NCBI GenBank assembly: GCA_022712755.1
Contig: JAFLJY010000220.1
Span: 1-42,481, forward strand
Length of the DNA: 42,481 nucleotides
Direction of reading: 5' to 3'
Origin: Gammaproteobacteria bacterium
GTDB lineage: Bacteria > Pseudomonadota > Gammaproteobacteria > SZUA-229
How positions within the stretch are numbered: the first letter of the stretch is position 1; every line of letters starts with the position of its first letter. Below, one piece after another: positions 14,858 to 35,510 of this stretch. The translations under genes and the position numbers were made by a program. Under the pieces are notes generated by a model. That model did no database searches, was not told the DNA's origin, and saw only the letters and a program-made list of their open reading frames with translations.

Positions 14858-14934
14858 AGGTTTATTATTTGGATTCGCATCTTGCTTTGCCGTTACCAGC
14901 AAAAAATCCTGGTATGACTATTCTTATGTAGGGA

Positions 14935-16389: not shown

Positions 16390-17688
16390 TTGCATAAAAA
16401 TTTAATGAGTAAATATATGAGCAAAAAATCGACAAGGAAATCTCAGGATATTATCTCTATTCCTGTAGACCAAATATACAGCCAGGGCTCATTAACAAAT
16501 AATGCAAGACCTATAGGCTGGAAGGGCGAGTTTATAGATAACACGGCTCAAGATAGTAAACCCGCCACAATAAAGTTACCAGGATTAACAGCACCAGATA
16601 GAGTACCCACGGGTCTTGCTAAACAATGGCGTTTTGGAAAGACGCTGTTAAATTTACTGCGCAGACCGAAGATTGTGAAGGATCTGCCTATTCACCTTCA
16701 GATGGAGTCAACGGATGCCTGCAACTTAAACTGCACCACGTGCTCACGTGACATTTTTATAGATAAAGCAAAATTGCTTGATGAGAAAATCTGGAAAAAA
16801 GTCATTGATGAAATAGTCCCTACAAATATTAACGTATCCGGAATAGGTGAGCCTTTCCTGCATCCCGATATATTTGACATAGTTGGTTATGCAAAAAGCA
16901 AAGGGTCAATCATTAATTGCGCAACAAATTTCACTCGCATAGATGGACGTTACCGTGAAATTATTGATTCAGGAATAAGCCAGTTAAAAGTTTCCATCGA
17001 TTCTACCGATCGCGAAACATTTAAAGCGATTCGCGGTGAAGATTATTTTGATGAAATTATTGATAATGTCAGAAACATTGTGCATTTACGCGATGGCTTA
17101 AAAAAAGATGTGCCGGGAATAAGGTTTAATTTTGCGGTGCAGGCTCTAAATTACAAACAGGCACCCGGACTTATTGATCTGGCCGCTGAAGTAGGTGTGG
17201 AAGGTATCTATTTCCAATACCTTGAATATGTTGACATGGAAGATCGTAAGGGCATGTTAACTGGCGATATGACCAAAGAATCATTACTTGAAGTGTTAAA
17301 GGAAACAGAAAAAAGAGCCGAAGAAAAAGGCATTCTCACTAACCTGGATATCTGGTGGCGTGATTTTGATGTTTTCTGGAATAAAATGCAGCCGATAGCT
17401 GAATTTCAACCAAATAATAAGGCGTGTTATTTCCCATGGTTTAGCACCTGGCTTAGTGCCGATGGCTGGATTAGGCCCTGTCCTATTATGCCCTGGACCT
17501 TAGATGAAGGTCGAATGGGGAATTTAGCTGAACAAAGCTTTTCAGAAATCTGGAACGGTGCTAAATACCAGGAATTAAGAGCAGCGCTGGCGAGAGGCGA
17601 ACGTCCTACGCGTTCATGTAAAACATGTATTCCTCAGAGTTTGCATAACATCCTGTTCATGCGCTCCAAGCTTTTGCCAAAGAAATAA
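16390..17688 (+). CDS. Radical SAM enzyme with C-terminal SPASM/twitch-like Cys cluster
   Basis: 'ESTDACNLNCTTCSRD' is CX3CX2C. The C-terminal 'CYFPW...GWIRPCPIMPW...GNL...FSEIWNG...CKTC' is SPASM-like. The track start is TTG; ATGs at 16405 and 16417 are more likely. Confidence 0.85.
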   Translation: MHKNLMSKYMSKKSTRKSQDIISIPVDQIYSQGSLTNNARPIGWKGEFIDNTAQDSKPATIKLPGLTAPDRVPTGLAKQWRFGKTLLNLLRRPKIVKDLPIHLQMESTDACNLNCTTCSRDIFIDKAKLLDEKIWKKVIDEIVPTNINVSGIGEPFLHPDIFDIVGYAKSKGSIINCATNFTRIDGRYREIIDSGISQLKVSIDSTDRETFKAIRGEDYFDEIIDNVRNIVHLRDGLKKDVPGIRFNFAVQALNYKQAPGLIDLAAEVGVEGIYFQYLEYVDMEDRKGMLTGDMTKESLLEVLKETEKRAEEKGILTNLDIWWRDFDVFWNKMQPIAEFQPNNKACYFPWFSTWLSADGWIRPCPIMPWTLDEGRMGNLAEQSFSEIWNGAKYQELRAALARGERPTRSCKTCIPQSLHNILFMRSKLLPKK

Positions 17689-19118: not shown

Positions 19119-19520
19119 TTAACGACGACGACCACCACCCATAGAACGGTTGGTCGCACCCTGACGATTCATCGAGCCTGAATTGCCAGAGCCAGAAACA
19201 GCACTATTTTGCATAGTACGATTCATTGTGTTGTAACGATTCATGGAACCTTGGCCTGATCCAGATTGCTCTGTTGAATTGTTATTCATGTAGCTATATT
19301 GATGCTGGTTTTGGTTCTGGTTTTTATTTATCACCATTGTTTGTTCGCGATTTAGCGTTGGTGCAAAATTACTATCAGGTGCTTGCAGGTTTACATGCAT
19401 ACGAATACGATCCTGAATATGTGTTTGTGTTGTGTCGATGTCTTCTGCGTAGGCAGATCCTGTCGATGTAGCCAATATCAATACTGCAGCAGGAATGGAT
19501 AATTGTGTGATAGTTGTCAT
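19119..19520 (-). CDS. Secreted low-complexity Q/N/S/G/Met-rich protein with a basic GGGRRR C-terminus
   Basis: Sec signal 'AAVLILATSTGSAYA|ED'. 'NKNQNQNQHQ' tract. Repeated 'GS(G)..GSMNR' units. About 9 Met in the mature chain. Confidence 0.6.
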   Translation of the reverse strand: MTTITQLSIPAAVLILATSTGSAYAEDIDTTQTHIQDRIRMHVNLQAPDSNFAPTLNREQTMVINKNQNQNQHQYSYMNNNSTEQSGSGQGSMNRYNTMNRTMQNSAVSGSGNSGSMNRQGATNRSMGGGRRR

Positions 19521-19576
19521 TTTATTTGCCTTTAGATTTATTCGTTATGGGAGAAGCTTCCGGTTATCGATTTAAC

Positions 19577-19605
19577 GGCGGGATTGTGCAACTATTTATC
19601 CCGCC
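19577..19605 (-). terminator. Stem-loop between the beta-propeller gene and the Q/N-rich gene
   Basis: 8-bp perfect stem, GGCGGGAT (19577-19584) paired with ATCCCGCC (19598-19605). No clear U-tract on the minus strand, so its function is uncertain. Confidence 0.3.
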
Positions 19606-19642
19606 ATTAAACCATCTGTTTTTTGATTGGGTTTCAAATAGA

Positions 19643-21136
19643 TTACATATTCACGCCTTCACCATTCCAGATAAAGCTACCCATCAGCAAGTTACCGCCA
19701 ATATAGGTTTTATCAACTTGCCATGTATCCAGATCAATTCTAAAAAATACACCGTCATGGCTGGCAGTACTGTAGAAATATTCCATATCAAGACTCACGC
19801 CTGAGGTATGTGCCTGTGACTTGTAATCCGGTGAAGCAGAAGTAGCCACCTCCACATTTCTCACGAACTGATGGCTTAGTGTGTCGATAACCGTCATATA
19901 GGTCGCATTATGATTGGTGATGATGGCCTGATTGCGCATCGGTAGAAAAGTGGTATGGCCTGCACCCGCACCGGTATCAATCATGGCTTCGATGCCCATG
20001 GTGTTTTTATTGATGACAAAAGTATGGCCTTCCGCTGAGCCGATATAGATAAACTCACCGTCCGGATGAAAATCAGCATGATGTGCCCCCATGGTATTGA
20101 TATCCAGATTCACCGGGTCATAATCATGTAGATTGACCTGTGCGGTTTGCTCTAATGCATTTCGGTTAATACTAAAGCGGATGAGGCCGGGTGAAACCTG
20201 TTCACCCTGATTGCCTTCAATCACTGCATAAAATACATTTTGTTCGCCCGCTGCCATGGTTGAAGCCGGAGGCTGAAAAATATGATGGATGGAGGTCGGT
20301 GTATGCAGGACGGACAGCATGGTTCCCTCTCGATTCCACAATTGTATCTGACGTGATGCACGATCCAGCATGAAGAAATGATGATCACTGATCCACAATG
20401 GATGACCGGTAGACAAAGAGCCGCCAAAATCATGTGGTGTGGTTAATACATTTTCACCAACCACCTTGGTAACCTTATCCATATCGGTACGAATGATGCT
20501 AGTCATGGCTTTATCACCACCGGAAACCAGAGACAGTAAGGTATTGGCATTAAAGTTGGTTGAACGTGGCTTGTGCTGTAATTCAATTAAGCCCTTATTA
20601 TCCAGCGTATAGTTATCAACCACAGTTAACGATTCGGTTCTGCGTGTGAGTGCATAGGCTTTGTTTGCACCCTGCTGATCAATACCATAGGGGCCATCAC
20701 CGGTGCCTTCAACGCTAGTAAGCAAAGTCATATTGTCGACATCAATAATATAAACCCGGTTTGAATCCCAGTCGCCGTAGTAGGCCAGGTTGTCAACACC
20801 AAAAATATTCTCGCTGATGTAAGCGTCCTGATTGACATAACCTGGCTGACGATAACCAAAATGTCCGTGGTGTTTATGCGCTGTCTGCTGTTGTGCCAGG
20901 TCGGCAGGGTTACTTATTAACAGAGCTTCTGCATCGGTAGTGTTGCTTATTGACAGGGCTTCTGCGTTTTCAGCTAACGCATCTGTTATTTCGTTTACCG
21001 TCTCATCATTACATGCGCTCACACTCATAACCAGTACACCACTTAAGCAAAGTGCAATGGCGAGTCTGAGTTTGTCTGGTTGCTGATTGGGGCTGTCTGG
21101 TTTTACTGCTTTGTTTTGTAGATTGGAAGTTTTCAT
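19643..21136 (-). CDS. His-rich beta-propeller lipoprotein (YVTN / NosZ-CuZ-domain / thiocyanate-dehydrogenase-like fold suspected)
   Basis: Lipobox 'VSAC'. An 11-aa tandem repeat linker is followed by 'AHKHHGH'. Blade-like periodicity with recurring G/A-H-T turns ('EGHTF', 'GAGHTTF', 'QAHTSG', 'ASHDG') and HH pairs ('DHHFF', 'SIHHIF', 'GAHHADFHPDG'). Confidence 0.65.
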   Translation of the reverse strand: MKTSNLQNKAVKPDSPNQQPDKLRLAIALCLSGVLVMSVSACNDETVNEITDALAENAEALSISNTTDAEALLISNPADLAQQQTAHKHHGHFGYRQPGYVNQDAYISENIFGVDNLAYYGDWDSNRVYIIDVDNMTLLTSVEGTGDGPYGIDQQGANKAYALTRRTESLTVVDNYTLDNKGLIELQHKPRSTNFNANTLLSLVSGGDKAMTSIIRTDMDKVTKVVGENVLTTPHDFGGSLSTGHPLWISDHHFFMLDRASRQIQLWNREGTMLSVLHTPTSIHHIFQPPASTMAAGEQNVFYAVIEGNQGEQVSPGLIRFSINRNALEQTAQVNLHDYDPVNLDINTMGAHHADFHPDGEFIYIGSAEGHTFVINKNTMGIEAMIDTGAGAGHTTFLPMRNQAIITNHNATYMTVIDTLSHQFVRNVEVATSASPDYKSQAHTSGVSLDMEYFYSTASHDGVFFRIDLDTWQVDKTYIGGNLLMGSFIWNGEGVNM

Positions 21137-21159
21137 AAATCACTCTATAGTTTGCTAGT

Positions 21160-21208
21160 GTGGGAATAATTCCCACGTGCAATTATATTATGTGGTAATT
21201 TTTCCCAC
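21160..21208. promoter_or_regulatory. Two 7-3-7 palindromic operator-like sites in a divergent promoter
   Basis: GTGGGAA-TAA-TTCCCAC at 21160-21176 (perfect) and GTGGTAA-TTT-TTCCCAC at 21192-21208 (1 mismatch). Centres are 32 bp apart. A TATAAT hexamer lies at 21216-21221, about 48 bp upstream of the 21270 ATG. Confidence 0.5.
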
Positions 21209-21269
21209 GTCAAGGTATAATGCCCAGAAAGGTTGATCTAAGTCATCAAAGTAACGAATTGACGATGTT

Positions 21270-22157
21270 ATGATTAAAAGCAGAAAACAACAAAAAAAAT
21301 TTATGAAGCAAAGTGGATACAACAAGACACAGGCAGCGCTGGTGAAAGCGGTATCCATGCTTTGTCGGCCATTAATACGGTTGTTAATTGAAAAAGGCAT
21401 GACCTTTCCCCAGTTTCGTGAATTAATGAAAAGCCTTTATGTGGACGTTGCTGCGCAACATTTTTCACTGGATGATAAAAAACCCAGTGACAGCCGCATT
21501 TTTGTGCTCACCGGTGTGCACCGAAAAGACATTAAACGACTACGTCAGCAGGCCGAACAGGAAAGTTCAGCAATCACAAGTTCGGCTTCACTGAGCGCAG
21601 AAATTGTGGCGAGATGGAGCAGTGTGGCAGAATTTCTGGATGACAAAAACCGATCCAGAGCATTACAAAAAAGCGGGAAAAATAATGTCGCCGGATTTGA
21701 GCAGCTGGTATCCAGTGTCAACAAGGATGTCAGACCAAAAGTTATTCTCGAAGAATGGTTGCGCCTTAATATCGTACGTTTGAAAGGTGATTACGTGGTT
21801 CTCAATAAATCCGCCTTTGTCACCAACAAAGAATTTACCGAGATGGCGTATTACCTTGGTCATCATGTGCATGACCATCTTGCAAGTTGTGTTAATAACA
21901 TATTGGCTGAAAATGAACCGATGCTGGAGCGCAGTGTTTATTACGCTTCCTTAACCGAAGACTCAGTGAATAAATTAAATGCCATTGCCAGTAAAAAAGG
22001 TAATGAATTGTTGTTGCATGTAAACAAACAGGCTATCAAGTTTTACGACGCAGATAAAAATAAAGCAGATGCAGCATATCGAATGCGCCTGGGTGTTTAC
22101 TGGTATCAGACTCCACTTAATGCGTCTGTTGATCCTGCTAAGGAAGTTGAACAATGA
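21270..22157 (+). CDS. Hypothetical protein with HTH-like segment (resembles the DUF6502 family from memory)
   Basis: 'SDSRIFVLTGVHRKDIKRL' looks like a helix-turn-helix. First gene of the operon, immediately downstream of the palindromes. ATGA overlap with the next gene. Confidence 0.55.
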   Translation: MIKSRKQQKKFMKQSGYNKTQAALVKAVSMLCRPLIRLLIEKGMTFPQFRELMKSLYVDVAAQHFSLDDKKPSDSRIFVLTGVHRKDIKRLRQQAEQESSAITSSASLSAEIVARWSSVAEFLDDKNRSRALQKSGKNNVAGFEQLVSSVNKDVRPKVILEEWLRLNIVRLKGDYVVLNKSAFVTNKEFTEMAYYLGHHVHDHLASCVNNILAENEPMLERSVYYASLTEDSVNKLNAIASKKGNELLLHVNKQAIKFYDADKNKADAAYRMRLGVYWYQTPLNASVDPAKEVEQ

Positions 22158-23107
22158 ACAACTTTTATCGAATAATTATTCTGCTGCTGGTTATCAGTAT
22201 GACTGCCTGTACAACAAGCCAGTCGAACCAGTGGGTTGCCAGTGGCGAAGATGATGATAGTGGTCTGGGTGGTACCGGCCTGCTGGCTAATGTTAATAAC
22301 AGCGCCAGTAGTGGCGGCGATAGAGGTTTGGGTGGTACTGGTATTCGGGGTGAAATAACCGGTTATGGCAGCATTTTTGTAAACGGTACTGAAATCGAAT
22401 ACGACAGTGAAACCGCTTTTACTATTAATGGTGGCACGGCTGGCTATCAACAACTGGAAATAGGCGATGTGGTTGAAGTGCTTACCACAGACCTTAATAA
22501 ACATACTCAGGCACAGATAATTAACCTGCGACATGAAGTCATTGGCAAAGTTGAATCCATTGATCCGCAAGCCTTTAGTTTTACTGTTCAAGGGCAAACG
22601 GTTATTCAACCTGTAAATAAAAAACAGTTACCTTTAGTTGGAGACTCGGTAGCCGTCTCTGGTTTCCGTGTAAATGACAACACCATTGTATCTACTCGAG
22701 TGACTCCTGCTGGGGGTAAATCGATTTTATTGCGCACGCATACTGAGTTACCGTTTAAGGAAAAAACCACACACTGGTTAGTTCAGTTGCATGTGAAGAA
22801 TGACAAAGCCGTTTTCCAGGTAGAAGGTAGGACACAGGTTTTAAGCATTAAGAAAGAAGCTAAAACTGCATCTACAGACCGCTCGGGAACCCGCATTTTA
22901 CAACTACAGAAAACAGCGACTGGGCAACTTAAACTTGAGCAGGTGATTGAACCAATGGCGATGCCTCGTGGTCAACAAGTACCAACGTCTGTGCAGCACT
23001 CTGGTGGCAATAAGTCACAAAAACAGATGCCTGGATCAGGGCGGGGTGGTTACTCAAGGCAGGGACGCAGAGGCATGAATACTCAACCTGGAAAACGTGG
23101 AAAGTAA
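22154..23107 (+). CDS. Lipoprotein with repeated small beta-barrel modules (DUF5666-like) and a G/R/Q-rich basic tail
   Basis: Lipobox 'MTAC'. 'GLGGTGIRGEITGYGSIFVNGTEIEYDSETAFTING' and 'IGKVESIDPQAFSFTVQGQTV' match my memory of the DUF5666 pattern. Tail 'GSGRGGYSRQGRRGMNTQPGKRGK'. Confidence 0.6.
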   Translation: MNNFYRIIILLLVISMTACTTSQSNQWVASGEDDDSGLGGTGLLANVNNSASSGGDRGLGGTGIRGEITGYGSIFVNGTEIEYDSETAFTINGGTAGYQQLEIGDVVEVLTTDLNKHTQAQIINLRHEVIGKVESIDPQAFSFTVQGQTVIQPVNKKQLPLVGDSVAVSGFRVNDNTIVSTRVTPAGGKSILLRTHTELPFKEKTTHWLVQLHVKNDKAVFQVEGRTQVLSIKKEAKTASTDRSGTRILQLQKTATGQLKLEQVIEPMAMPRGQQVPTSVQHSGGNKSQKQMPGSGRGGYSRQGRRGMNTQPGKRGK

Positions 23108-23151
23108 TATGGATCAGCCGAACCTTAATTTAAAGTGTAAAATATTTTCAT

Positions 23152-23532
23152 ATGCAAATAAGTAAAAAACAGCGATCCACTAAAATGCTGATCATCTATA
23201 TGGTCACTGCATTGCTGTTTTTGACTTCCGTCGAATTGCATATCCACACACAGGAAACGGCAGCAACAGTAGGACATGGTTTTGCTGTTGATATTAGTTC
23301 GTTGGCTGATAGCCTTAAACCAGAAGGAAGCAATGATGAAATCTCAGTTAGTCCGGACACCGCATTACAGGTAAAACAAATCTTTGTCAGTTTGCTGGCA
23401 GTATTCCTGTTATTTACGGTTATGGTGGCCGTTCTTTGCCGAACCTTTATCGGTCGATGGCGAGAAAGCCACAATCTGTTACCTGCCGTGCCTTTTTATG
23501 GCACACCACACCTGCGCGCGCCGCCCCAATAA
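23152..23532 (+). CDS. Small two-TM membrane protein with an 'HIH' motif after TM1 and a '...LRAPPQ' C-terminus
   Basis: 126 aa with TM1 'LIIYMVTALLFLTSV' then 'ELHIHTQE'. TM2 is 'IFVSLLAVFLLFTVMVAVL'. Sits directly upstream of the OMF gene, a position comparable to czcI-type accessory genes. Confidence 0.45.
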   Translation: MQISKKQRSTKMLIIYMVTALLFLTSVELHIHTQETAATVGHGFAVDISSLADSLKPEGSNDEISVSPDTALQVKQIFVSLLAVFLLFTVMVAVLCRTFIGRWRESHNLLPAVPFYGTPHLRAPPQ

Positions 23533-23653
23533 ACGCCAAAACCAACCCGATAGTTTTTTACTGTTAGCAGTTTTATCTGCTGATGTGTTGTTGTGGAACT
23601 TGTTGCATAAAGCTTAATAGCTAAGTAGCCGTTCTCTGTTTGGAGTTTTCAAG

Positions 23654-25018
23654 ATGTTTATTAGAAACTTATTTATAAGAAGCTGGTGTATTCAGACTGG
23701 CATAAAAAATGTACTACTAAAAATTAATTATGGTTTAATTGTGGCACTAATGCTGCCAACTTCTCAGTCCATTGCACAGTCAGTGGTACAGTCGACTGGG
23801 CAACAATGGACTTTGCAAGCCAGTGTTCAGCAGGCGATGTCTGCATCACCGGAATTAAAAAAATCAATGGCTGAAATTGATGTACGCCAGACAGACATCA
23901 ACCTGTCCAGCCTGTGGCCCGAACCCAGTATAGCGTTTCGCATTGATAACAAACTGGGGCAGGATGATGCAACCGGTGGTTATGATTTGACGGACATCAC
24001 CATCAGTCAACCTATCCCGATATCACGTATAAAGTATCAGGCCTCAGCGGCTGAGGCCAGTTTGAAAGCCGCTCGCTTTTCGCGTTTGTATCAGTCTCTG
24101 CAGGTGCAGAACCGGGTGTCAAAAGTTTTTTTTCAGTTACAACTGGCTTCGGCAGAATTAGCATTGGCAGAACAACAGTTGCAACTGGCCGATAAACTCA
24201 TCAATCAAACTGAGAAAAACACCAAGGCTGTTGTGGTGCGATATTTGACGCCACTGGAAAAAATGCGGATGACGATTATTCGTGAAGAGGCTGACCAGGC
24301 AGCGAGTAGCGCCGAAGGGAAATACAATGAATCACTGAGCGAATTTGTTAAGTTGCTGGGTATAGAAGTTGATAACGTGACCACGGTTTCCGAACTGCAA
24401 CCGCTAGTTGAGATGCCCGATATTAAACAGTTGTCGGTATTGCAGGAACATCATGTGCAGCTGTCCAGTCAGCAACAGCAGGTACTGGCGGCAAAACATC
24501 AAATTGACGTAGCCAGGAATAGCCAGTTAGTTGATCCGTCTATCGGCCTGAGCTGGTCACGTGATACGTTTCCTAACGGCCGTGATGATGTTTACGCCAT
24601 CATGTTCAATATGCAGATTCCTATCGGTGACCGTAAAAACACAGCGGCAAGTAAAGCCACCTATAAAGCGAGCCAGCAAGGTATAGAGCTGGCGTTGCTG
24701 AAGCGTGAACTGAAAATTAATTTACATAAAAGTTTTACACATTTAAACCATGTGGTTATGCAGGCCAGAGATTACAAACAAAAAGTGCTTAAACCCGCGC
24801 AGAAAATGCTCGACTTAACCAACAGGGGGTTTAGCAGTGGTGAATTAAATATATTGTCGCTGGTGGATGCGAATAATACCTATTTTGCAGCGCGCTTAAA
24901 TTATCTGCAATTACTCTATCAGGCATGGGTGGAGCTGGCGGAGGTTAAGTTGTTTGCTGGACAGATGATAACGGATGCCGATACGCAGAGCGTTAGTCTG
25001 CTTAAAGGAGGGGTATAA
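23654..25018 (+). CDS. Outer-membrane efflux factor (TolC/CzcC/CusC family)
   Basis: 454 aa with a signal-like N-terminus. Two-repeat coiled-coil-rich OEP architecture; 'LNYLQLLYQAWVELAEV' is a typical C-terminal OMF segment. Confidence 0.85.
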   Translation: MFIRNLFIRSWCIQTGIKNVLLKINYGLIVALMLPTSQSIAQSVVQSTGQQWTLQASVQQAMSASPELKKSMAEIDVRQTDINLSSLWPEPSIAFRIDNKLGQDDATGGYDLTDITISQPIPISRIKYQASAAEASLKAARFSRLYQSLQVQNRVSKVFFQLQLASAELALAEQQLQLADKLINQTEKNTKAVVVRYLTPLEKMRMTIIREEADQAASSAEGKYNESLSEFVKLLGIEVDNVTTVSELQPLVEMPDIKQLSVLQEHHVQLSSQQQQVLAAKHQIDVARNSQLVDPSIGLSWSRDTFPNGRDDVYAIMFNMQIPIGDRKNTAASKATYKASQQGIELALLKRELKINLHKSFTHLNHVVMQARDYKQKVLKPAQKMLDLTNRGFSSGELNILSLVDANNTYFAARLNYLQLLYQAWVELAEVKLFAGQMITDADTQSVSLLKGGV

Positions 25019-25019
25019 A

Positions 25020-28000
25020 ATGATTGCTGCTATTTTACGTTTTTCACTTATTCAGCGACTGATGGTTGTGTTAGTCACGCTGGGCATTTCTGCCGCCGGT
25101 TTATGGTCGTTTAAAACCTTGCCGATAGATGCCTTTCCGGATATTTCTGCGCCGCAGGTGCAGATTATTGTCAAGGCTCCCGGTATGTCACCCAGCGAAG
25201 TTGAACAGCGCATTACCTTTCCGATAGAAATGGAAATGCAGGGCATTCCCGGACAAACCGTGCTCCGGTCAACAACCAAATACGCACTAAGTGTGATCGT
25301 TGTCGACTTTGAAGATGACATGGATATTTACCTGGCGCGTAACCTTGTTAACGAGCGACTTAACCAGGTGTGGGATGCGTTGCCGGCCGATATTGAAGGC
25401 GGCCTTGCGCCCATTACCACGCCACTGGGTGAGATATTTATGTATCGCATTATCGGCGATAGTGGCAGTAATAACTACAGTAATCAGGAATTACGCAGCT
25501 TGCAGGACTGGGTTATCCGTCCGCATTTGCGCAAAGTGGAAGGCGTGGCCGATGTCAATTCACTGGGCGGTGAAGTGCGTAGCTATGAAGTGGTGATCAA
25601 ACCAGAAACCCTGGTGAAACACGGTATTAGTATCGATGAAATCGAGCATGCACTGCAGGCCAGTAACCGTAATGCGGGCGGTGATCGCATCAACCGTAAC
25701 AATGAAGTCTTACTGGTGCGTACTGTTGGCAAATTAAACGACATCAACGACATCAAAAATATACCGGTACGCACACGTTATGGTGAACCGATACACATAC
25801 GCGATGTCGCTGAAGTGCGAATTGGTAGCATGACCCGTTATGGCGCAGTGACTGCTGATGGTGAAGGTGAAGTTGTCACCGGGCTGGTTTTATTACGCAA
25901 AGGTGCAAACAGTTTGCAGACGGTCGCCGGGGTCAAAGAAGCACTGCAGTCATTAAAAACAATTTTACCTGAAGGTATTAGCATCGAAGCCTTTTATGAT
26001 CGAACCGAGCTGATTACCAAAGCCGTATGGACGGTGGAAAAAGCACTGGCTGAAGCAGTGATACTGGTGTTACTGGTGTTGATTATTATGCTGGGTGACA
26101 TCCGCAGTGCGTTAACGGTGGCATTGATTTTGCCGTTAACCGTATTATTTACTTTCATCATGATGAAGCAGTTTAATGTCTCGGCCAACCTGATGTCACT
26201 GGGCGGGCTGGCCATTGCCATCGGCATTCTGGTGGATGCTGCCGTGGTGGTGGTAGAAAATATCCACACCCATTTCAGCAAAGCGCCAGCCGGGGTTAAT
26301 AAACTGCATCTGGTTTATCGTGCGGTACTGGAAGTGTCGACCCCCGTTATTTCCGGTATTCTGATTATTGTGGCGGTATTTCTGCCGCTGTTTAGTCTCA
26401 CCGGGCTGGAAGGCAAAATGTTTTCACCGTTGGCCATCACCATTACTTTTGCCCTGATTGGTTCCCTGGTCATGTCATTAACCGTGATTCCGGTGTTGGC
26501 CAGTTTCTTTATGAAATTGCATGTGCAAAAAGACTCTGAGGAACAAGTGAAGGAGACGGATGGTCATTTGATGCGGCTGCTGAAATTCATTTATTTACCG
26601 GTGATGAACTGGGCATTACGTTATCGAAAAATAGCAGTCGGTTTAGCGCTGCTGGCACTGTTTGCAACCGCCAGCCTGTTTCCGCATATTGGTAAAGAGT
26701 TTATGCCAGTCATGGATGAGGGCAGTACGGTTATCCTGCTAGAAAAAGACCCCAGTATTACCCTGGAAAAATCACTGGCAATGGACGCGCCTATTCAACG
26801 GGCTATGATGGAATTGCCGGAAGTGATTGGTGTAACCTCACGAACCGGCGCTGACGAATTACGCATGGATCCCATGGGTTTGCACCAGACCGATAATTTT
26901 CTGGTGACAAAGCCACGCGAACAATGGACTATTTCATTACAGCAATTCCAGCAAAATTTGCGTGAAAAACTGTCCCGGTTCGATAATGTGGATTATGCCT
27001 TTAGCCAGCCCATTGATATGCGGGTATCAGAAATGCTAACCGGTGTGCGCTCTGCGATGGCCATCAAACTCTATGGCGATGATCTCACCGTGCTGGAGCA
27101 AAAAGCCATCGAAATTGAAGCGCTGGTGAATAATGTACCGGGTGCTGTCGACGTATTTCGTGCCGATATTTCAGGGCAGAAATATTTACAGATTGACATC
27201 CATCAGGATGTGATCTCCGGTTACGGCATCCATGTTGAAGACATTAACCAGCTGGTGGAAATTGCAGTTGGTGGTCGGGTGGTTACCGAATTGCTGGAGA
27301 ATAATCGTCGTGTTGGCATCCTGCTGCGCTATCAGCAGGAGGATCGCAGCTCGCCCGAAGCCATCAAAAAGATGCTGGTGAGTCTACCCAATGGCACCAA
27401 AGTGTCGTTGGGTCATCTGGCCGAAGTATCGGTAGTGGATGGGCCGGTGCAGATTATTCGAGAATCGGCCAAACGGCTGGTGGTCATCCAGTCAAATGTC
27501 GAGGGCCGCGATGTGGTCGGTTTTGTCGATGAGGTGTCTCGTAATCTAGAAGAAAAAGTGACGCTGCCAACGGGCTATTACGTGACCTTTGGTGGCCAGT
27601 TTGAAAATCAGCAGCGTGCATCAAACCGATTGGCGCTGGTAGTGCCTGTCGCCATCGTGCTGATTTTCTTTATGTTATTTACCACCTTCCGCTCACTGTT
27701 ACAGGCAGGCATCATTATTCTGAATATCCCGTTTGCCATGATTGGCGGTGTTATCAGCCTGTATTATTCCGGGCTTTATCTATCGGTGCCGGCATCGGTA
27801 GGTTTTATTACCCTGTTTGGTGTGGCGGTACTTAACGGCGTGGTCATGGTGAGTTACTTCAACCAGCTTAGACAAAGCGGTCTGAGTATTCAGCAATCGG
27901 TAAAGCAAGGGGCAGAGCGACGATTAAGGCCGGTATTGATGACCGCCATGATAGCCAGTTTTGGTTTGTTGCCGCTGCTGACCGCGACCGGCCCAGGCTC

Positions 28001-28166
28001 TGAACTGCAGCAACCACTGGCGGTCGTGGTGATTGGCGGTCTGTTTACCTCAACCATTCTGACATTAATTTTACTGCCAGCACTGTATGCCTGGGTAGAA
28101 GAAGCCCTGGAAAGGCGGGTACTAAATAAAAGCATAGTAGAGAAAGAAGAGGAAGTTTCAGCATGA
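25020..28166 (+). CDS. Heavy-metal efflux RND pump (CusA/CzcA family; TM4 motif of CusA type)
   Basis: 'MIAAILRFSLIQRLMVV...' start at the ATG 25020, after GGAGG. The 24975 track start is an in-frame extension into the OMF gene. 12-TM, two-large-loop layout. TM4 reads 'LGGLAIAIGILVDAAVVVVEN'. Confidence 0.9.
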   Translation: MIAAILRFSLIQRLMVVLVTLGISAAGLWSFKTLPIDAFPDISAPQVQIIVKAPGMSPSEVEQRITFPIEMEMQGIPGQTVLRSTTKYALSVIVVDFEDDMDIYLARNLVNERLNQVWDALPADIEGGLAPITTPLGEIFMYRIIGDSGSNNYSNQELRSLQDWVIRPHLRKVEGVADVNSLGGEVRSYEVVIKPETLVKHGISIDEIEHALQASNRNAGGDRINRNNEVLLVRTVGKLNDINDIKNIPVRTRYGEPIHIRDVAEVRIGSMTRYGAVTADGEGEVVTGLVLLRKGANSLQTVAGVKEALQSLKTILPEGISIEAFYDRTELITKAVWTVEKALAEAVILVLLVLIIMLGDIRSALTVALILPLTVLFTFIMMKQFNVSANLMSLGGLAIAIGILVDAAVVVVENIHTHFSKAPAGVNKLHLVYRAVLEVSTPVISGILIIVAVFLPLFSLTGLEGKMFSPLAITITFALIGSLVMSLTVIPVLASFFMKLHVQKDSEEQVKETDGHLMRLLKFIYLPVMNWALRYRKIAVGLALLALFATASLFPHIGKEFMPVMDEGSTVILLEKDPSITLEKSLAMDAPIQRAMMELPEVIGVTSRTGADELRMDPMGLHQTDNFLVTKPREQWTISLQQFQQNLREKLSRFDNVDYAFSQPIDMRVSEMLTGVRSAMAIKLYGDDLTVLEQKAIEIEALVNNVPGAVDVFRADISGQKYLQIDIHQDVISGYGIHVEDINQLVEIAVGGRVVTELLENNRRVGILLRYQQEDRSSPEAIKKMLVSLPNGTKVSLGHLAEVSVVDGPVQIIRESAKRLVVIQSNVEGRDVVGFVDEVSRNLEEKVTLPTGYYVTFGGQFENQQRASNRLALVVPVAIVLIFFMLFTTFRSLLQAGIIILNIPFAMIGGVISLYYSGLYLSVPASVGFITLFGVAVLNGVVMVSYFNQLRQSGLSIQQSVKQGAERRLRPVLMTAMIASFGLLPLLTATGPGSELQQPLAVVVIGGLFTSTILTLILLPALYAWVEEALERRVLNKSIVEKEEEVSA

Positions 28167-28468
28167 AAAAATTATCCATCGTAGTGCATACATCACTGCA
28201 GCAGGAACTGGCTGACTGTTTGCGTAGTTTGAAACTGGACAGTTTTGTGTTTAGTCATATTGAGGAGCACAGTTCACAGCTAAAACAGGATGTTTTTTTA
28301 TCGGCGCGAGATAAAGTAGTAGGGTATGTGCCTAAAGTGCGCGTTGATGTATTGCTGGAGGACGTACGGGCTAAGAATTTACTGGATGAGCTTCGTGGTT
28401 CAAATATATCGTTCGCTGGCAAGGGTATCTATTGGATTTCAGAAGTGGATGAATCGGGCGAGTTGTAA
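28163..28468 (+). CDS. Small cytoplasmic PII/CutA-like protein (DUF3240-like)
   Basis: 101 aa. ATGA overlap with the RND stop. A 'KLSIVVHTSLQQELADCLRSL' beta-alpha start suggests a ferredoxin-like fold. From memory, this family commonly follows czcA-like genes. Confidence 0.6.
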   Translation: MKKLSIVVHTSLQQELADCLRSLKLDSFVFSHIEEHSSQLKQDVFLSARDKVVGYVPKVRVDVLLEDVRAKNLLDELRGSNISFAGKGIYWISEVDESGEL

Positions 28469-28517: not shown

Positions 28518-28782
28518 TCAGGCTGCCATCCTGCGGTCTCTGGTGGTCAGCCTTCTGTCAATAGTATATCTGCGAGACGGGCCATTGTAATTATGGTCAC
28601 CGTCTCCCCGGCGCTCACTATCTGGACGCCTACGGTTCAGGTTCATTTTTCGAGCATGGCTTTTTGAGGATATGCCATCTTGAACGCGGCGATTATGTAG
28701 TGGCTCGACTGTTGCAGTTTCCTCCATCCTTTTACCAGAGGGGTTTATTTTCGTGCCTTTGTGGGTGAAGTTTTTATCCATG
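28518..28782 (-). CDS. Hypothetical small Arg-rich basic protein
   Basis: The likely start 'MDKNF' (ATG at 28782) has AGGA about 8 nt upstream; the track start is 28802. Composition is biased: 'NRRRPDSERRGDGDHNYNGPSRRYTIDRRLTTRDRR'. Confidence 0.35.
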
Positions 28783-29234
28783 TTGTATGTCCTGCCTATC
28801 ATTATTTCAGGAGCGCTGCTATTTCATTTGCTTATGTGCTAATAGCGAGGTATTACAACAAAAATCAGCCGTATGAATTAATACATTCAGTACGATTGAT
28901 ATTAGTCCCTCAACGCTATATCAGAATTAAATAACATTATTTTTAAATAATAGCCCCACTTACATTCAAAACAAAGCCCTCATAGGCTATTTTTTTATGA
29001 AAGGCATTAATATCCAGTGCATTAGGCAGCTGCAGTAGATTTAATTGATTAATTTAGGTTTAAAATCATTGGTGGTACATAGGCAGAGAGTGCTACGTTA
29101 AATCAAAGTCCCGTTATCACTAAGACGTGTCGTCTAAAGTATTTTATTTTCTTCTGATTTTTTGACTCTAATCAATGCTCTCGCATCTACTATCTGCATG
29201 CTTATAAATGTAGCGTTTAATAAAACATGAGAGA

Positions 29235-29726
29235 ATGATTATGAACGACGTCCAGCAAAAGATTACCACTTGCGCAACTTTGCTAAGTGAAAATATTAAT
29301 GAGAAAGAGTGTAAGGTGCTTGCGGCCGTGTTTCAGTTACAAAAACTTGCTGCGGGTGACATTCTGTTGCGTGAAGGTGAACAGGATGATGCGTTATACA
29401 TCGTTATTGATGGTGACATCATGGCAACGCGTGACGCGGGTGGTGATCAGCATGTTACTTTACATCATCTGAAGCCTGGTGATATTGCGGGTGCGATGGG
29501 GTTTATCGATGGTAATAGTCATTCGGCGACACTGTGTGCAAGCCGGGATTCGCATGTGCTTACATTGCATCGTGATGCACTTGAAGGCATGGTTGATGAA
29601 CATCCTCAACTGGTTTACAAAATGATGAAGATGATTGTGCGCTCTGTTCATCAGACACTCTTGAAAATGAACCGGCAATTTGTCGAAATGAATAACTACA
29701 TCATGAAGGAACACGGTCGGTACTGA
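29235..29726 (+). CDS. Stand-alone cyclic-nucleotide-binding (cNMP/CAP effector) domain protein
   Basis: 'ILLREGEQDDALYIVIDGDI' and 'GDIAGAMGFIDGNSHSATLCA' are cNMP-binding beta-roll motifs. At 163 aa there is no room for a DNA-binding HTH. Confidence 0.8.
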   Translation: MIMNDVQQKITTCATLLSENINEKECKVLAAVFQLQKLAAGDILLREGEQDDALYIVIDGDIMATRDAGGDQHVTLHHLKPGDIAGAMGFIDGNSHSATLCASRDSHVLTLHRDALEGMVDEHPQLVYKMMKMIVRSVHQTLLKMNRQFVEMNNYIMKEHGRY

Positions 29727-29798
29727 CGATATATATTGCCGCCGGGTTAATAATATGCCTGTAATTTAATTTGAAAGTTCAATACTGCGCAGGTTTTA

Positions 29799-31721
29799 TT
29801 AAACTGGCTCGTCCAGCAATGCACGCACCTGTTGTATCAGTTCCGCCTGACTGTATGGTTTGCTGAGCAGGTTGGCGTTAAAACGTGCCTGTCCATTGTG
29901 GGCAACGGACTTTTCTGTATAGCCTGAAGTAAGTAGAACCTTGAGTTCTGGATACTGCCTGGTAGCCTGTTCGGCCAGTTCATAACCGTTTATGCCGCCT
30001 GGCATCACAATATCGCTGAACAGAAGCTTGATAGAAGGCTCTTCGGTCAGTTTCTCCAGTGCCTGATTACCATTTGTAGCAGTTATAACTCGATAGCCCT
30101 GTTCTTGCAGTGACTCTTTGGCCAGTTCCAGCAGGTCAGCTTCGTCGTCAACAGCCAGCAGGGTTTCGATACCACGGGGTAGTTTCCCGGTTTGTATTTT
30201 AGTTTGTTTATCTGGCAGATTTTCAGCCTCTGCTTTTGGCAGGTAGATTCTAAAGGTGGTGCCGATGTTCGGCTCGGAATATACCTTGATGTGGCCTTTG
30301 CAGCGTTTAATAAAACCAAACACCATGGCTAGCCCCAGCCCCGTGCCTTTACCTTGTGCTTTTGTTGTGAAAAAAGGCTCGAAGATGCGATTCTGTCGCT
30401 CGCCTGACATGCCTTCACCGTTGTCGCTTACCGCCAGTTGCACGTATTCACCAGGATTTGCGCCGGGGTTGAGTGAGCAGTAGGCGGCATCCAGATAGCA
30501 ATTTTGTGTTTCAAGTGTGAGCTGACCGCGCCCGCTCATGGCATCACGGGCATTTAGAACCAGGTTGATAAGCGTATCCTGAAAATCTCCAGTATCAATA
30601 GCTGTCAGCCAGAGATTCTCGGCAAAATGGAGTTGCACCTCCACCTGTGGCGTGACCGAGCGGGATATCAGATTTTCCATTTCCTGGATAATCTGGTTGA
30701 TATTGGTTACGGTTACGTGCTCGGCCTGACGGCGTGAAAAACCCAGTAACTGGCTGGTTAGATCAGCAGCGCGTTGAGTGGAATTCTGGATGTTTTCAAT
30801 CCTTTTATGCGCTTTGTCGTCACCTGCAGTCTGGCGTTCAAGTAACTCCAGGTTGCCCTGAATAATGCATAGGAGATTATTAAAGTCGTGGGCAATGCCG
30901 CCGGTGAGTTGGCCGATAGCGTCCATCTTCTGAGAATGGCTAAGGTTTTTTTCTGTTTTCCGCAATAATTTTTCTGCTTCTTCGCGACGCTGTGCCATAG
31001 TATTGTAGGTAGTGGCCAGTATAGCCATTTCATCGTGGCCATCAACGTCCAGCCTGTAGCCGAAGTCACCCCGGCTAAATCGTTCACTGGCCTTCAGCAA
31101 GCGAGTCAACCCCGTATTTAGCGACCGTGTTACCGGCAGAACCAGTACAGCTATAAATATCAGCATAAGCAGGGGCAGTGCCAGCAACAGCATGCCGCCA
31201 ATAAAATCCTGCCGGCGTGATTGAGCCCCTAGACGCTGATGAATCTTGTGAATTTCGACCAGTAAATCCTGTTGCGCCAGTCGTATCTGGTTACCCAGGC
31301 GGCGCTGTAGTTCATGGCAGGAGTTAGTTGTATAAACAGCGGACTTTTTCGTGACTTTTTTCTGTTGGCAATTTTCATGGGCCTGTATATAGGTATTAAA
31401 TCGTTGGCCAATTTTTTGGTGCTGTTTTTTTAGAATGGGATAAGTCGTTTGCTCATGCAATGGCGAGTCAGTGATTTTTTTGCCCAGATTATTATAGATG
31501 ATTAGCCACTGTTTGGATTGAATGCGGATCTGGGCATCGTGCAATAGATCGATAGTGATAATATTTAGATTTACTGCTTCTGTTTGCAACTGTTCTACGG
31601 CATCTTCTCGGTGGTTCTGTTTTTGTATGGTTAGATGTTCTAGCCAGGTGACGATTGCGGTTAGAACGACGACGAAGACAGCACCTGCAGTCAGCAGTTT
31701 GAGTTTTGAGCGAATCATCAT
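29799..31721 (-). CDS. Hybrid sensor histidine kinase (TM-sensor-TM-HAMP-HisKA-HATPase-REC)
   Basis: H-box 'LTGGIAHDFNNLL', N/G boxes 'LNARDAM' and 'GTGLGLAMV', and a C-terminal receiver 'LLAVDDE...LFSDIVMPG'. Confidence 0.85.
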   Translation of the reverse strand: MMIRSKLKLLTAGAVFVVVLTAIVTWLEHLTIQKQNHREDAVEQLQTEAVNLNIITIDLLHDAQIRIQSKQWLIIYNNLGKKITDSPLHEQTTYPILKKQHQKIGQRFNTYIQAHENCQQKKVTKKSAVYTTNSCHELQRRLGNQIRLAQQDLLVEIHKIHQRLGAQSRRQDFIGGMLLLALPLLMLIFIAVLVLPVTRSLNTGLTRLLKASERFSRGDFGYRLDVDGHDEMAILATTYNTMAQRREEAEKLLRKTEKNLSHSQKMDAIGQLTGGIAHDFNNLLCIIQGNLELLERQTAGDDKAHKRIENIQNSTQRAADLTSQLLGFSRRQAEHVTVTNINQIIQEMENLISRSVTPQVEVQLHFAENLWLTAIDTGDFQDTLINLVLNARDAMSGRGQLTLETQNCYLDAAYCSLNPGANPGEYVQLAVSDNGEGMSGERQNRIFEPFFTTKAQGKGTGLGLAMVFGFIKRCKGHIKVYSEPNIGTTFRIYLPKAEAENLPDKQTKIQTGKLPRGIETLLAVDDEADLLELAKESLQEQGYRVITATNGNQALEKLTEEPSIKLLFSDIVMPGGINGYELAEQATRQYPELKVLLTSGYTEKSVAHNGQARFNANLLSKPYSQAELIQQVRALLDEPV

Positions 31722-32752
31722 CTGGGTTTAATTCCTATCAGTCCGACTGCATAAGGTATAGCTTCCTCGAGTGGCGTAGAGTTGATTCGTGTTAGAAAAT
31801 CCGGTATCTGGGTGTCGCTCTGCTTATCTGGTTTGATCAAACCAGTGGTTACAGCCCACTGCGCTTCTTCCTGAAGGGTAATCAAAAGCCCCTGATTAAG
31901 GGTAACCGACAAGCGCATATCTGACAATAATGAGGCGACAGTTACCTGTGGTAACTGGAGTTTTCTGGAAATTATTTGCAGAGCTTTGTCAGGGTTCTTA
32001 TCTGCATAATTCGCCCCTTTGTTCAGTGCAAACAGAATTTTCCGTATAACGCCGGGATGGTTGTTATCGAAGTCTGCCGTACCCACTAAATTATAAGATT
32101 TGGTATAAAGCCCCGGCACGCTGAATTCTACAAGTTTATCAATACCGATTAGTTTTTTTGCCTGAGAGAGGTAGGGTTCGCGCATTGAAAAGGCATCGAT
32201 ATCACCTTTAGTCAGTGCTGCAGGCAAGTCTTCTGCCTTCATGAAGCGAGTACTGGTGCTGGTCGAGTCCAGCTGATAATAAAGCAGGAAACTGCTCAGA
32301 AAAAAATGTACAGCTGAACCTTGCTGGGTAGCGATGGTCTTGCCACGAAGGTCTGCCGGTTGATTGATGCCGTGGTCACGGCGTGCCAGTATACGGAGTT
32401 CATTATCGCTTTGCCCCATGCTGGCATACAGGCGTAGATCATCACGTTTGAAACTGGCGATAACAAAAGGTGTTTCCGCAGTGACGGCCAGCTTTACTTC
32501 ACCTCTCAGCATCGCTGCCAGCGCCCGCTTGCCACTGGGGTGGGCGTGTAGATCCAGTTGGATGCCCTGTTCCTCGAAGAATCCAAGATCATCAGTCAGC
32601 CAGATGAGTGAAGCCTGCGTGGACTGGGGCGCGCCCATAGAAATGCTTTGCAACGGTGGCTTGTTATCACAGGCGCTTAGCCATAAGCTGCTAAAGATAA
32701 CGAGTATTGCTGGATAAAAACGTAGGGGAAAAGTTGGCTGATCCTTGTTCAT
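31718..32752 (-). CDS. Periplasmic solute-binding protein (NMT1/SsuA/TauA-like) translationally coupled to the kinase
   Basis: Signal/lipobox-like 'LWLSAC'. Type-2 PBP-like length. 4-bp ATGA overlap with the kinase start. Confidence 0.7.
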   Translation of the reverse strand: MNKDQPTFPLRFYPAILVIFSSLWLSACDNKPPLQSISMGAPQSTQASLIWLTDDLGFFEEQGIQLDLHAHPSGKRALAAMLRGEVKLAVTAETPFVIASFKRDDLRLYASMGQSDNELRILARRDHGINQPADLRGKTIATQQGSAVHFFLSSFLLYYQLDSTSTSTRFMKAEDLPAALTKGDIDAFSMREPYLSQAKKLIGIDKLVEFSVPGLYTKSYNLVGTADFDNNHPGVIRKILFALNKGANYADKNPDKALQIISRKLQLPQVTVASLLSDMRLSVTLNQGLLITLQEEAQWAVTTGLIKPDKQSDTQIPDFLTRINSTPLEEAIPYAVGLIGIKPR

Positions 32753-33084
32753 ATTGGGAGAGGATTCCTTGTATTATAGTTCTTCTACGTTGTCGAATTT
32801 CATATTAGAGTACTACATAAATATAGCATGAGAACTTAGCTATCACTGAGTTTTACCCGTTTCCAGTAGAGAAAGTTTGATATATGTCATTGAATGGCGG
32901 CTTGATGGTGATTAATATCCGTCTACGCCCCTTTATTTTTTGCTGAGCAAGACTGTCGGTGTTTTCGCAGGTTTCAGCATTAGTAGAGTTCATATGGATT
33001 GATGAGGTTAACCTTATGTTATCGAAAAAATAGTTGCGTACAAACACGTGCTAATACAGTGCGTTTAACAGGAATTGCGTTGAA

Positions 33085-35265: not shown

Positions 35266-35310
35266 TGGTTGGGTTAAGGTACATGAGTTTATATTTTATC
35301 TGATAGATAG

Positions 35311-35510
35311 TGTCAGATATGGAATGACTGATTTCGACACAAAAGAGAAGTTGGCAGTCGGCAGTTATCAGTCGGCAGTAAAAGCAAAACCATAGTTTGT
35401 GCTACACAGCCTGCGGCTTTTAGGTTATTTTGTTTTTAACTGCAAACTGATAACTGCCAACTTCTCTAAATGACCGAACTCAGTCATTCGCTTGATGAGT
35501 AAATCTGACA
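35311..35510. repeat. ~200-bp imperfect palindrome with GGCAGT/ACTGCC hexamer repeats
   Basis: Paired blocks: TGTCAGAT 35311-18 with ATCTGACA 35503-10; GAATGACTGATTTCG 35322-36 with CGAACTCAGTCATTC 35475-89; AGAGAAGTTGGCAG 35344-57 with CTGCCAACTTCTCT 35454-67. An 11-nt direct repeat CAGTCGGCAGT occurs at 35355-65 and 35369-79. Confidence 0.55.

Follow-up and report, generated by a model that had tools for sequence, protein, structure and literature searches.

In the 42,481-nucleotide contig JAFLJY010000220.1 of a Gammaproteobacteria bacterium of the SZUA-229 lineage (assembly GCA_022712755.1), a stretch that we call the window and analysed at its full length, a metal-efflux operon of RND (resistance-nodulation-division) type lies on the + strand. 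It encodes a small membrane protein, an outer-membrane factor (OMF), an RND pump from the HME (heavy-metal efflux) family and a DUF3240 protein, without a membrane-fusion protein (MFP). This periplasmic adaptor is seen as the obligatory third component of RND-OMF machines, where it links the parts held in the two membranes, brings the channel to open and the pump to work, and serves as a target for drugs. Here we describe a phylogenetically broad set of operons that have dispensed with a co-encoded adaptor, together with a specific change that appears to have co-evolved at the OMF surface which normally meets it.

The locus and its genes

An earlier reading of the same letters, made by a model without database searches and called here the original prediction, had seen seven genes packed between 21270 and 28468. 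Six same-strand open reading frames (ORFs) are counted there on the + strand: 21270-22157, 22154-23107, 23152-23532, 23654-25018, 25020-28166 and 28163-28468. The junctions lie exactly where that reading had put them: ATGA overlaps join genes at 22154-22157 and at 28163-28166, and the stop of the OMF gene at 25018 precedes the pump ATG at 25020. Pfam recognizes DUF6502 (E-value 3e-23), DUF5666 (2e-9), OEP (2e-32), ACR_tran (8e-296) and DUF3240 (8e-10); the 295-amino acid (aa) product of the first ORF, described as helix-turn-helix-like, has no match to such a family and none in the PDB. The pump start at 25020 agrees with the gene calls in homologues, while for the DUF6502 gene these calls place the start at 21303, the longest ORF opening at 21270.

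Two unrelated conserved modules, which in this lineage happen to be neighbours, make up the region. An envelope module, module 1 (19119-23107), is formed by a small secreted protein, a propeller-like protein, the DUF6502 protein and a lipoprotein with repeats of the OB (oligonucleotide/oligosaccharide-binding) type, and shows no consistent tie to efflux. The efflux operon is module 2 (23152-28468), composed of a small HxH...RAPP membrane protein, the OMF, the HME-RND pump and DUF3240. A weak terminator-like hairpin is found at 23562-23585, between the small-protein gene and the OMF gene. An Rfam scan of the whole window gave no RNA family, and a promoter scan returned promoter-like sites only at chance level. 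The features are collected in Table 1.

Table 1. Position of the genes, segments and residues discussed in the text (window numbering; TM, transmembrane).
Feature	Position	Strand	Remarks
Small secreted N/Q-rich protein, 133 aa	19119..19520	-	C-terminal GGGRRR tail; homologues in relatives' loci
497-aa protein with weak YVTN/YncE-type beta-propeller repeats	19643..21136	-	Divergently transcribed; weak NCBIfam and PDB propeller matches
DUF6502 protein, 284 aa	21303..22157	+	Pfam DUF6502 (PF20112), E 3e-23; separate module
DUF5666 lipoprotein, 317 aa	22154..23107	+	Lipobox Cys19, G-rich disordered linker, about four OB-like beta-barrels, G/P/R-rich disordered tail
Small membrane protein, 126 aa	23152..23532	+	First gene of the efflux operon; N-terminal TM helix ending L-H-I-H, second hydrophobic segment
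OMF, TolC/CusC-type channel, 454 aa	23654..25018	+	Pfam OEP x2, E 1.6e-32
Remodelled first hairpin tip, aa 185-199, QTEKNTKAVVVRYLT	24206..24250	+	15-residue loop: variable basic insertion and V-R-Y-L-T-P(-L-E)
Second hairpin tip, GFSSGELNILSLVDA, canonical	24827..24871	+	Aligns to TolC YSVGTRTIVDVLDA; conserved in MFP-less and MFP-linked OMFs
HME-family RND pump, 1048 aa	25020..28166	+	TIGR00914 CusA/CzcA; ACR_tran 8e-296, residues 5-1026
Fourth TM segment (TM4) signature, AIGILVDAAVVVVEN	26217..26261	+	Pattern as in E. coli CusA, AVGAMVDAAIVMIEN; near-invariant in the family
Pump Tyr735 (E. coli CusA position 736)	27222..27224	+	Sole cleanly discriminating residue between MFP-less pumps and MFP-linked sisters
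DUF3240 protein, PII-like, cytoplasmic, 101 aa	28163..28468	+	ATGA overlap with the pump (translationally coupled)

An efflux operon without its adaptor

The HlyD families find no match among the about 35 ORFs of the window. A hidden Markov model (HMM) derived from the cognate MFPs of sister operons (39 sequences) and run with filters off on the six-frame translation of the 42 kb gives a best E-value of 0.73. This negative result is meaningful because the sister-operon MFPs, taken as positive control, match HlyD_D23 at about 1e-47. CusB and CusF have no match in the window either. Canonical tripartite RND operons contain an HlyD-family MFP gene; this one has none, its OMF and pump genes being separated by 1 nt. 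That no frame of the window holds an MFP-like ORF, as the original prediction had stated, is thus upheld both by the family scan and by the cognate HMM. Its further statement that a set of accessory genes occupies the adaptor's place needs correction, because the MFP slot of the sister operons is located between OMF and pump, which abut here. The host genome was covered over these 42 kb, and the relatives over flanks of up to 10 kb.

The pump was used to scan one genome per species, and 79 loci at 50-90% identity (numbered, like the other loci cited below, with the prefix L) were sampled from more than 500 relatives, their ORFs being labelled by phmmer and HMMs. The ancestral layout of the branch is small protein-OMF-MFP-RND-DUF3240 or, on Pseudomonas megaplasmids, MFP-RND-DUF3240-TolC, as annotated there by PGAP. 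The MFP gene is missing from 43 loci, with the window counted among them, and the genes of OMF and pump adjoin there. These loci belong to Gammaproteobacteria, Zetaproteobacteria (Mariprofundus, Ghiorsea), Gallionellales (Betaproteobacteria; Sideroxydans, Ferrigenium), Nitrospirota, Planctomycetales and Omnitrophota. The distance from the OMF stop to the pump ATG is -4 nt in 25 of them, +1 nt in nine, +2 nt in four and -1 nt in two. Along the 538 kb of flanking sequence, MFP-like ORFs appear at only 3 of the 43 loci (L047, L048 and L054), each time as part of a second complete system. Furthermore, close pairs have ratios of non-synonymous to synonymous substitutions (dN/dS) of 0.06-0.09 in the pump gene, 0.09-0.22 in the OMF gene and 0.05-0.29 in the small genes (0.19-0.29 in that of the small protein), so that all six genes, those of the neighbouring pair included, are under purifying selection. 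The absence of the MFP gene is therefore old, clean and kept by selection.

Some of these loci present particular arrangements. L050 (2204-13404) carries a tandem pair of MFP-less systems on one contig; L036 and L038 are MFP-less systems on two contigs of one metagenome-assembled genome of Gallionellales; in L054 (3477-15096) an MFP-less system is directly followed by a small protein-OMF-MFP-RND system. In L090 (8189-11325), a metagenome assembly of the close relative L089-91, the pump gene is split into calls of 65 and 993 aa, by a frameshift or an assembly error, and in the other two assemblies it is intact or falls at a contig break.

A rebuilt tip of the outer-membrane factor

With its two OEP repeats and its TolC fold, the OMF is a member of the OMF/TolC family. 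Its AlphaFold2 (AF2) model (pLDDT 74.5) is matched by Foldseek to TolC, OprM, SilC and CusC with E-values of about 1e-15 and TM-scores of 0.6-0.7. In this model, helices 123-184 and 200-235 enclose the first tip as a loop of residues 185-199, and the loop of the second tip comprises merely five residues (395-399). HMMER aligns the tip-1 segment to TolC 'VGLVAITDV', and tip 2, SSGELNILSLVDA, to TolC VGTRTIVDVLDA. It has been described that AcrA hairpins bind TolC at these VGL/T tips (PMC5404916). Of the glycine tight turns (VGL/VGT) expected at both tips, the one at tip 2 is canonical (SSGELNILSLVDA), and tip 1 has no glycine at the aligned position.

An alignment of 55 OMFs was examined, 38 of them from MFP-less loci (34 with a confirmed OMF-pump junction). 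All 38 present at tip 1 an insertion rich in K/R/N/S, followed by (L/V)(V/I)-R-Y-(L/I)-(T/S)-P-L-E. This combination of insertion and RYLTPLE motif occurs in none of the 13 sister MFP-linked OMFs and in none of three basal MFP-linked ones; the 13 sisters all read ...RRE-QAG(E/D)LS-LERLRL instead. Moreover, V195, R196, Y197 and L198 are invariant in 44 database homologues of the OMF. Judged from these alignments, half of the presumed MFP-docking tips of the channel is rebuilt, in perfect correlation with the loss of the MFP gene. The gate residues of the OMF (equivalents of TolC Y362/R367) were considered as another correlate; compared by eye, they show no clean correlation with MFP status.

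A motif of such complexity, common to the MFP-less OMFs, argues for a single origin. In neighbour-joining trees of the pump and of the OMF (tip masked), which carry no support values, the MFP-linked sisters form one clade and the MFP-less members a surrounding grade or a sister group.

In both trees, the MFP-containing loci L013-L030, L046, L057, L059 and L063 seem nested within the MFP-less diversity. Taken as real, the nesting would mean that MFP and canonical OMF tip came back, recombination being one possible route; taken as a rooting artefact, it would leave a single loss.

The pump and its probable substrate

The pump scores 1061.6 bits against TIGR00914, for an NCBIfam cut-off of 701.45, which makes it a member of the HME-RND family. 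Its closest PDB entries are ZneA (4k0e, E 6e-203) and CusA (E 8e-193), and its identity to E. coli CusA is 35%. TM4 reads LGGLAIAIGILVDAAVVVVEN, as the original prediction had quoted it, and conforms to the single-Asp signature A-[IV]-G-x3-D-A-A-x3-[VI]-E-N, a pattern that we take to be that of the HME4 group. The CusB-type MFP and the CusF chaperone that are co-encoded in HME4 systems are absent from this operon. TM4 signatures have been used for the classification of HME-RND pumps (PMC7060636, PMC3637150).

The metal site tells a different story from the TM4 pattern. The methionine triad of CusA (M573/M623/M672) is replaced by L/Q/E in the window pump. The Q and E are invariant in 40 of 40 MFP-less pumps; throughout the family E672 does not vary, and the MFP-linked members have Q, E or D at position 623. 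Among the relay methionines only M391 is kept, while the charged relay residues R83, E567, D617 and R669 are conserved. The designation as a CusA-type Cu(I)/Ag(I) pump, advanced on the strength of TM4, consequently survives as regards the match of that helix to E. coli CusA and fails as regards the metal, in view of the triad and of the slightly better PDB match to ZneA. Because carboxylate and amide residues take the place of the CusA triad, the substrate is probably a divalent or hard cation. This corrects the logic of annotation: a 'CusA-type' motif in TM4 does not imply a methionine Cu(I) site.

Accessory genes common to the branch

The small protein at the head of the operon has an invariant C-terminal P-x-L-R-A-P-P (P-P-L-R-A-P-P in the family) and conserved histidines, and finds no match in Pfam or NCBIfam. 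An iterated HMM recovered 41 members of its family in the sampled loci, directly upstream of the OMF or MFP gene, in operons with and without MFP; the most distant homologues seem to lack the second hydrophobic segment.

At the other end of the operon, the DUF3240 protein (PF11582) scores 39.2 bits against a gathering score of 21, and PGAP calls its homologues 'DUF3240 family protein'. Its score against the Pfam P-II family (21.7 bits) falls below the cut-off of 25, and PII proteins in the PDB match it weakly (E 1e-3 to 0.8). DUF3240 lies downstream of the pump in 62-64 loci, whether or not they have an MFP.

Since both families also accompany sister operons with a canonical MFP, neither the small two-TM protein nor DUF3240 is a replacement for the adaptor. 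An all-versus-all clustering of the flanks of the MFP-less loci, in search of a cryptic adaptor, yielded no conserved family beyond RND, OMF, DUF3240 and the small protein.

The neighbouring envelope module

The lipoprotein encoded just upstream had been put forward, in the original prediction, as a possible adaptor. The description of the molecule itself holds: its lipobox Cys19 is invariant, its body is all-beta and its G/R-rich tail is disordered. In its AF2 model (pLDDT 65, with 190 residues at 70 or above) a signal helix is followed by a disordered Gly-rich linker, about four small beta-barrels and the disordered tail; after the signal peptide a single short turn (residues 267-269) is helical, and there is no helical hairpin. 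Foldseek returned 632 PDB matches, with no MFP among them, a best E-value of 0.04 and no significant match over the whole protein. These weak matches correspond to single OB-fold domains, such as those of CcmE, IF1, RPA, CusF and the C-terminal domain of SilB. The beta-barrel, lipoyl and alpha-hairpin architecture of HlyD-type proteins (with or without a membrane-proximal (MP) domain) is lacking, and Pfam gives DUF5666 only (PF18914, 38.2 bits against a gathering score of 27). Likewise, a CusF-like nature finds no support: CusF OB domains match at E 0.32-0.37, the family has no invariant methionine and its sole invariant histidine is H127.

The genomic distribution of this lipoprotein points in the same direction. 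Its family counts 242 database relatives, all from uncultured Gammaproteobacteria. The DUF6502 gene (PF20112, 82.3 bits against a gathering score of 27; no result in a PDB sequence search with its product) and the lipoprotein gene are always paired by an ATGA overlap, whether a pump is nearby or not. Upstream of the pair and divergent from it are the genes of a propeller-like protein of 481-497 aa and of a small secreted protein with an RRR tail. The 497-aa protein of the window is 84% identical to a 483-aa protein at the equivalent place in L001, and the arrangement recurs in L089-93; homologues of the small secreted protein occur in L001/2, L003 and L005 (48-57% identity in L001 and L003) and, at the equivalent place, in L089-93. 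The four-gene set exists without a nearby pump in L001/L002, L092 and L093, and the pair itself in L004/5 and L094; in L003 pair and efflux operon run divergently. Conversely, among the pump relatives with full 10-kb flanks, the closest ones (L008, L009, L011 and L012; 78-88% pump identity) have no such pair in these flanks, and it is missing from all more distant MFP-less loci as well. Pair and efflux operon are adjacent in this manner only in the window and in the near-identical relative L089-91 ('Cardiobacterium sp. AH-315-I02', GCA_017113985.1; OMF identity 92%). Both the co-occurrence test and the structural model thus speak against the lipoprotein as adaptor, and that hypothesis fails because of them: the pair does not track MFP-less pumps, which was the co-occurrence on which the proposal had been made to depend.

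The module has its own neighbours. In L001/L002 the four genes stand directly upstream of an MtrC-like multihaem cytochrome cluster (L001 1-17177), and in L001 and L092 they adjoin a Ni_hydr_CYTB cytochrome b. This hints at a connection with electron transfer, be it extracellular or periplasmic, and not with efflux. Besides, the lipoprotein and the small secreted protein both end in Gly/Arg-rich tails, …GRGGYSRQGRRGMNTQPGKRGK (23056-23107) and …MGGGRRR (19119-19160), and so do their homologues; these common tails may be a shared sorting or matrix-binding signal.

How would the pump reach the outer membrane?

The reading that we prefer is that this subgroup would work without a cognate MFP. A proton-driven RND trimer would take up the metal cation and pass it directly to the OMF trimer, which would dock on the docking domain of the pump via its extended tip-1 loops with the invariant V-R-Y-L-T-P-L-E. 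The small membrane protein and DUF3240, ancestral accessories of the whole pump branch, would probably be regulatory or pump-associated rather than adaptor substitutes. Such direct docking of the OMF on the docking domain of the RND pump by way of the tip-1 loops, with no cognate MFP, is a tentative proposal, to which we grant a little less than even odds. The wider claim, according to which these would be widespread two-component trans-envelope RND pumps, with the rebuilt-tip OMF docked on and opened by the RND trimer and with no adaptor for the pump anywhere in the genome, has in our estimate a probability of roughly 0.35.

Position 735 of the pump, which by homology would lie in the docking subdomain DC, is Y in 42 of 42 MFP-less pumps and F in 13 of 14 MFP-linked sister pumps. 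In identity-matched pairs, the conservation of PC1, PC2 and DC is 0.69, 0.64 and 0.53 in MFP-less pumps versus 0.75, 0.72 and 0.65 in MFP-linked ones, the TM regions being equal, and entropy ratios reach 1.6-1.8 in these three subdomains versus 1.1-1.3 elsewhere; the contrast sets 14 MFP-linked sequences against MFP-less ones of greater diversity, along approximate borders of the subdomains. A review of the CusBA structure locates the main contacts of CusB on DN and DC and at the tops of PN2, PC1 and PC2 (PMC4338810). At the level of sequence, then, the relaxed surfaces would overlap partly with those of CusB contact, which is suggestive only.

Several points weigh against an adaptor-free machine. 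To our knowledge, every characterised RND-OMF pump needs an MFP, for bridging and for activation. DN, a main CusB contact, is not relaxed in the MFP-less pumps, and the small number and the heterogeneity of the sequences just mentioned limit what the relaxation of the other subdomains can carry. Furthermore, the comparison of MFP-less with MFP-linked pumps reveals no indels and just two discriminating columns, which fits an MFP that still binds. The search for MFPs extended over the window and the relatives' flanks, so that one encoded in trans is possible, and the trees are neighbour-joining trees without support values. There is, finally, a precedent for supply in trans, given that the orphan AcrD works with AcrA and TolC (PMC8277102).

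In the most serious alternative, which the original prediction had also named and for which AcrD is the precedent, the MFP would be supplied in trans by another RND system of the genome, for example a paralogous HME or a Cus-like one, and the altered tip 1 would be an adaptation to the foreign MFP or to a stoichiometry of three MFPs. It would account for a pump essentially unchanged with respect to the MFP-linked sisters and for an OMF whose tip 2 is still canonical; L047, L048 and L054 do carry a second, MFP-containing system within 10 kb, and iron oxidisers are known to possess several CzcA-family systems (PMC3770913). Nevertheless, 40 of the 43 loci show no MFP in the flanks examined, and borrowed MFPs would vary from genome to genome, whereas the tip-1 motif is invariant across phyla and calls for an invariant partner. 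The relaxation of PC1, PC2 and DC, which are MFP-contact subdomains, and the tandem or duplicate MFP-less copies (L050, L036/L038) are further arguments against borrowing, as is the fact that MFP and RND are usually co-encoded, their pairing being specific. Supply in trans seems to us somewhat less likely than direct docking. The two partners might also function uncoupled, the RND trimer moving the cation from the cytoplasm or inner membrane to the periplasm and the OMF, with an altered gate, serving as a separate exit channel, with no trans-envelope complex. HME pumps such as CusA can take cytoplasmic substrate (PMC4338810), the remodelled tip lies where the OMF has its gate, and in the pump no docking feature is new save one F-to-Y change. 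Yet the two genes are strictly coupled in translation in 40 of 40 loci, a sign of stoichiometric co-assembly, and an ungated OMF would leak, which renders this scheme improbable.

The explanation that the original prediction had itself favoured, in which the DUF5666 lipoprotein and/or the two-TM HxH protein act as a non-canonical adaptor or periplasmic hand-off module, fares far worse. What recommended it was the same-strand adjacency in the window and in its close relative L089-91, the weak resemblance (E 0.14-0.37) of single lipoprotein domains to metal chaperones with an OB fold, namely CusF (3e6z/2vb2) and the C-terminal domain of SilB (2l55), and the conserved His residues of the small protein. 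Against this, the pair is missing near four of the closest pump relatives and from all distant MFP-less loci and stands pump-free in at least five independent contexts; hairpin, lipoyl and MP domains are all missing from the lipoprotein, which has neither a fold match to MFPs nor an invariant Met; and the small protein is equally present in MFP-containing operons. Therefore, of that prediction the missing MFP stands, on the six frames and on the relatives, and the substitute falls, on co-occurrence and on the lipoprotein model, leaving it a very small likelihood. Still less credible is a decayed operon, in which a recent deletion of the MFP gene would have left non-functional relics, an idea with nothing behind it beyond the absence of the gene itself. 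It had been proposed that relatives with an MFP at this very junction would reveal such an event; close and distant relatives alike have the MFP-less junction, common to 43 loci across phyla, the ORFs are intact with dN/dS of 0.05-0.29 in all genes, and the derived OMF motif is conserved across the subgroup. Recent deletion or decay of the operon is thus excluded.

Genomic surroundings

Upstream, positions 1-15885 are occupied by a large envelope-glycan cluster comprising several GT2/GT4 glycosyltransferases, an ArnT/PMT-like membrane protein of 653 aa, a Wzx-type flippase, two NAD-dependent epimerases, a hexapeptide acyltransferase and a protein with an LPG_synthase_TM domain. A radical-SAM/SPASM enzyme (16390-17688) follows, and then small conserved ORFs up to about 18600, syntenic with L089 2365-4700 (85 aa, 141 aa); this locus is a possible peptide-modification cluster, of the type that makes ribosomally synthesized and post-translationally modified peptides.

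On the other side, a very Arg-rich 94-aa ORF with no family match (28518-28802, - strand) converges with the end of the efflux operon, and is called as an 87-aa gene at the equivalent place in L089/L090 (L089 14865-15128). Downstream, a signalling cluster (29235-36786) includes a stand-alone cyclic-nucleotide (cNMP)-binding protein, two hybrid histidine kinases, an NMT1-type periplasmic binding protein and a receiver-EAL phosphodiesterase. Unlike in the plasmid relatives, no metal-type two-component system lies beside the pump.

Significance and comparison with known systems

The MFP-less OMF-RND operon with its rebuilt tip is conserved in at least 43 species-level genomes, and nature may have produced in it a machine of two parts where three are usual. 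The minimal role of the adaptor becomes in this way directly testable, given sister operons with and without MFP at 64-72% pump identity. If the pump borrows its adaptor instead, the system would still represent a new type of OMF tip and a new rule of adaptor sharing among metal pumps. The organisms concerned include iron oxidisers, methanotrophs and sulfur-oxidising Gammaproteobacteria. A full-text literature search, of incomplete coverage and hence compatible with a prior description, returned no account of metal-efflux operons that pair OMF and RND without an MFP, nor of an OMF with this tip.

With CusCFBA of E. coli and SilCFBA, the system shares the CusA/CzcA family (TIGR00914), the TM4 pattern, the residues R83/E567/D617/R669 and an OMF with the CusC/SilC fold. 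It differs from them in its 35% identity to E. coli CusA, in the L/Q/E that replaces the Met triad and in the loss of most transmembrane Met pairs, as well as in having neither CusB nor CusF, an additional DUF3240 and small HxH protein, and a remodelled OMF tip 1.

ZneCAB and CzcCBA of Cupriavidus metallidurans are close in other respects, ZneA being the best match among solved structures and the periplasmic site positions bearing carboxylate-type residues. The small gene upstream of the OMF gene also recalls czcI in czcNICBA, the likeness being in position only. The operon of the window differs from both ZneCAB and CzcCBA in having no MFP. Moreover, its TM4 contains one Asp (AIG-DAA-VEN), in contrast to the DFG-DGA-VEN of HME1/2 (PMC3637150).

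The DUF3240 operons of Pseudomonas IncP-2 megaplasmids, of Ca. Thiodictyon pTs417 and of L013-L030 belong to the same branch of pumps (50% identity for the plasmids, 64-72% for the sister loci) and share the DUF3240 partner, the small HxH...RAPP protein, TM4 and the Q/E site residues. They encode a canonical HlyD_D23 MFP, however, and the OMFs of L013-L030 keep the canonical Gly tip 1; the subgroup of the window has neither.

Departures from the usual tripartite scheme have been described before. AcrD is likewise an RND gene without an adjacent cognate MFP gene (PMC8277102), but it is encoded alone and shares its OMF, whereas here a dedicated OMF with a subgroup-specific tip is translationally coupled to the pump. 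BesABC of Borrelia burgdorferi has an adaptor devoid of the alpha-hairpin, which makes the classical tip-to-tip contact of MFP and OMF impossible and implies another kind of OMF engagement, with altered gates in the OMF (PMC8277102). It is a drug pump, not an HME pump, and it retains the MFP BesA, with beta-barrel, lipoyl and MP domains; even so, it is the nearest known departure from tip-to-tip assembly.

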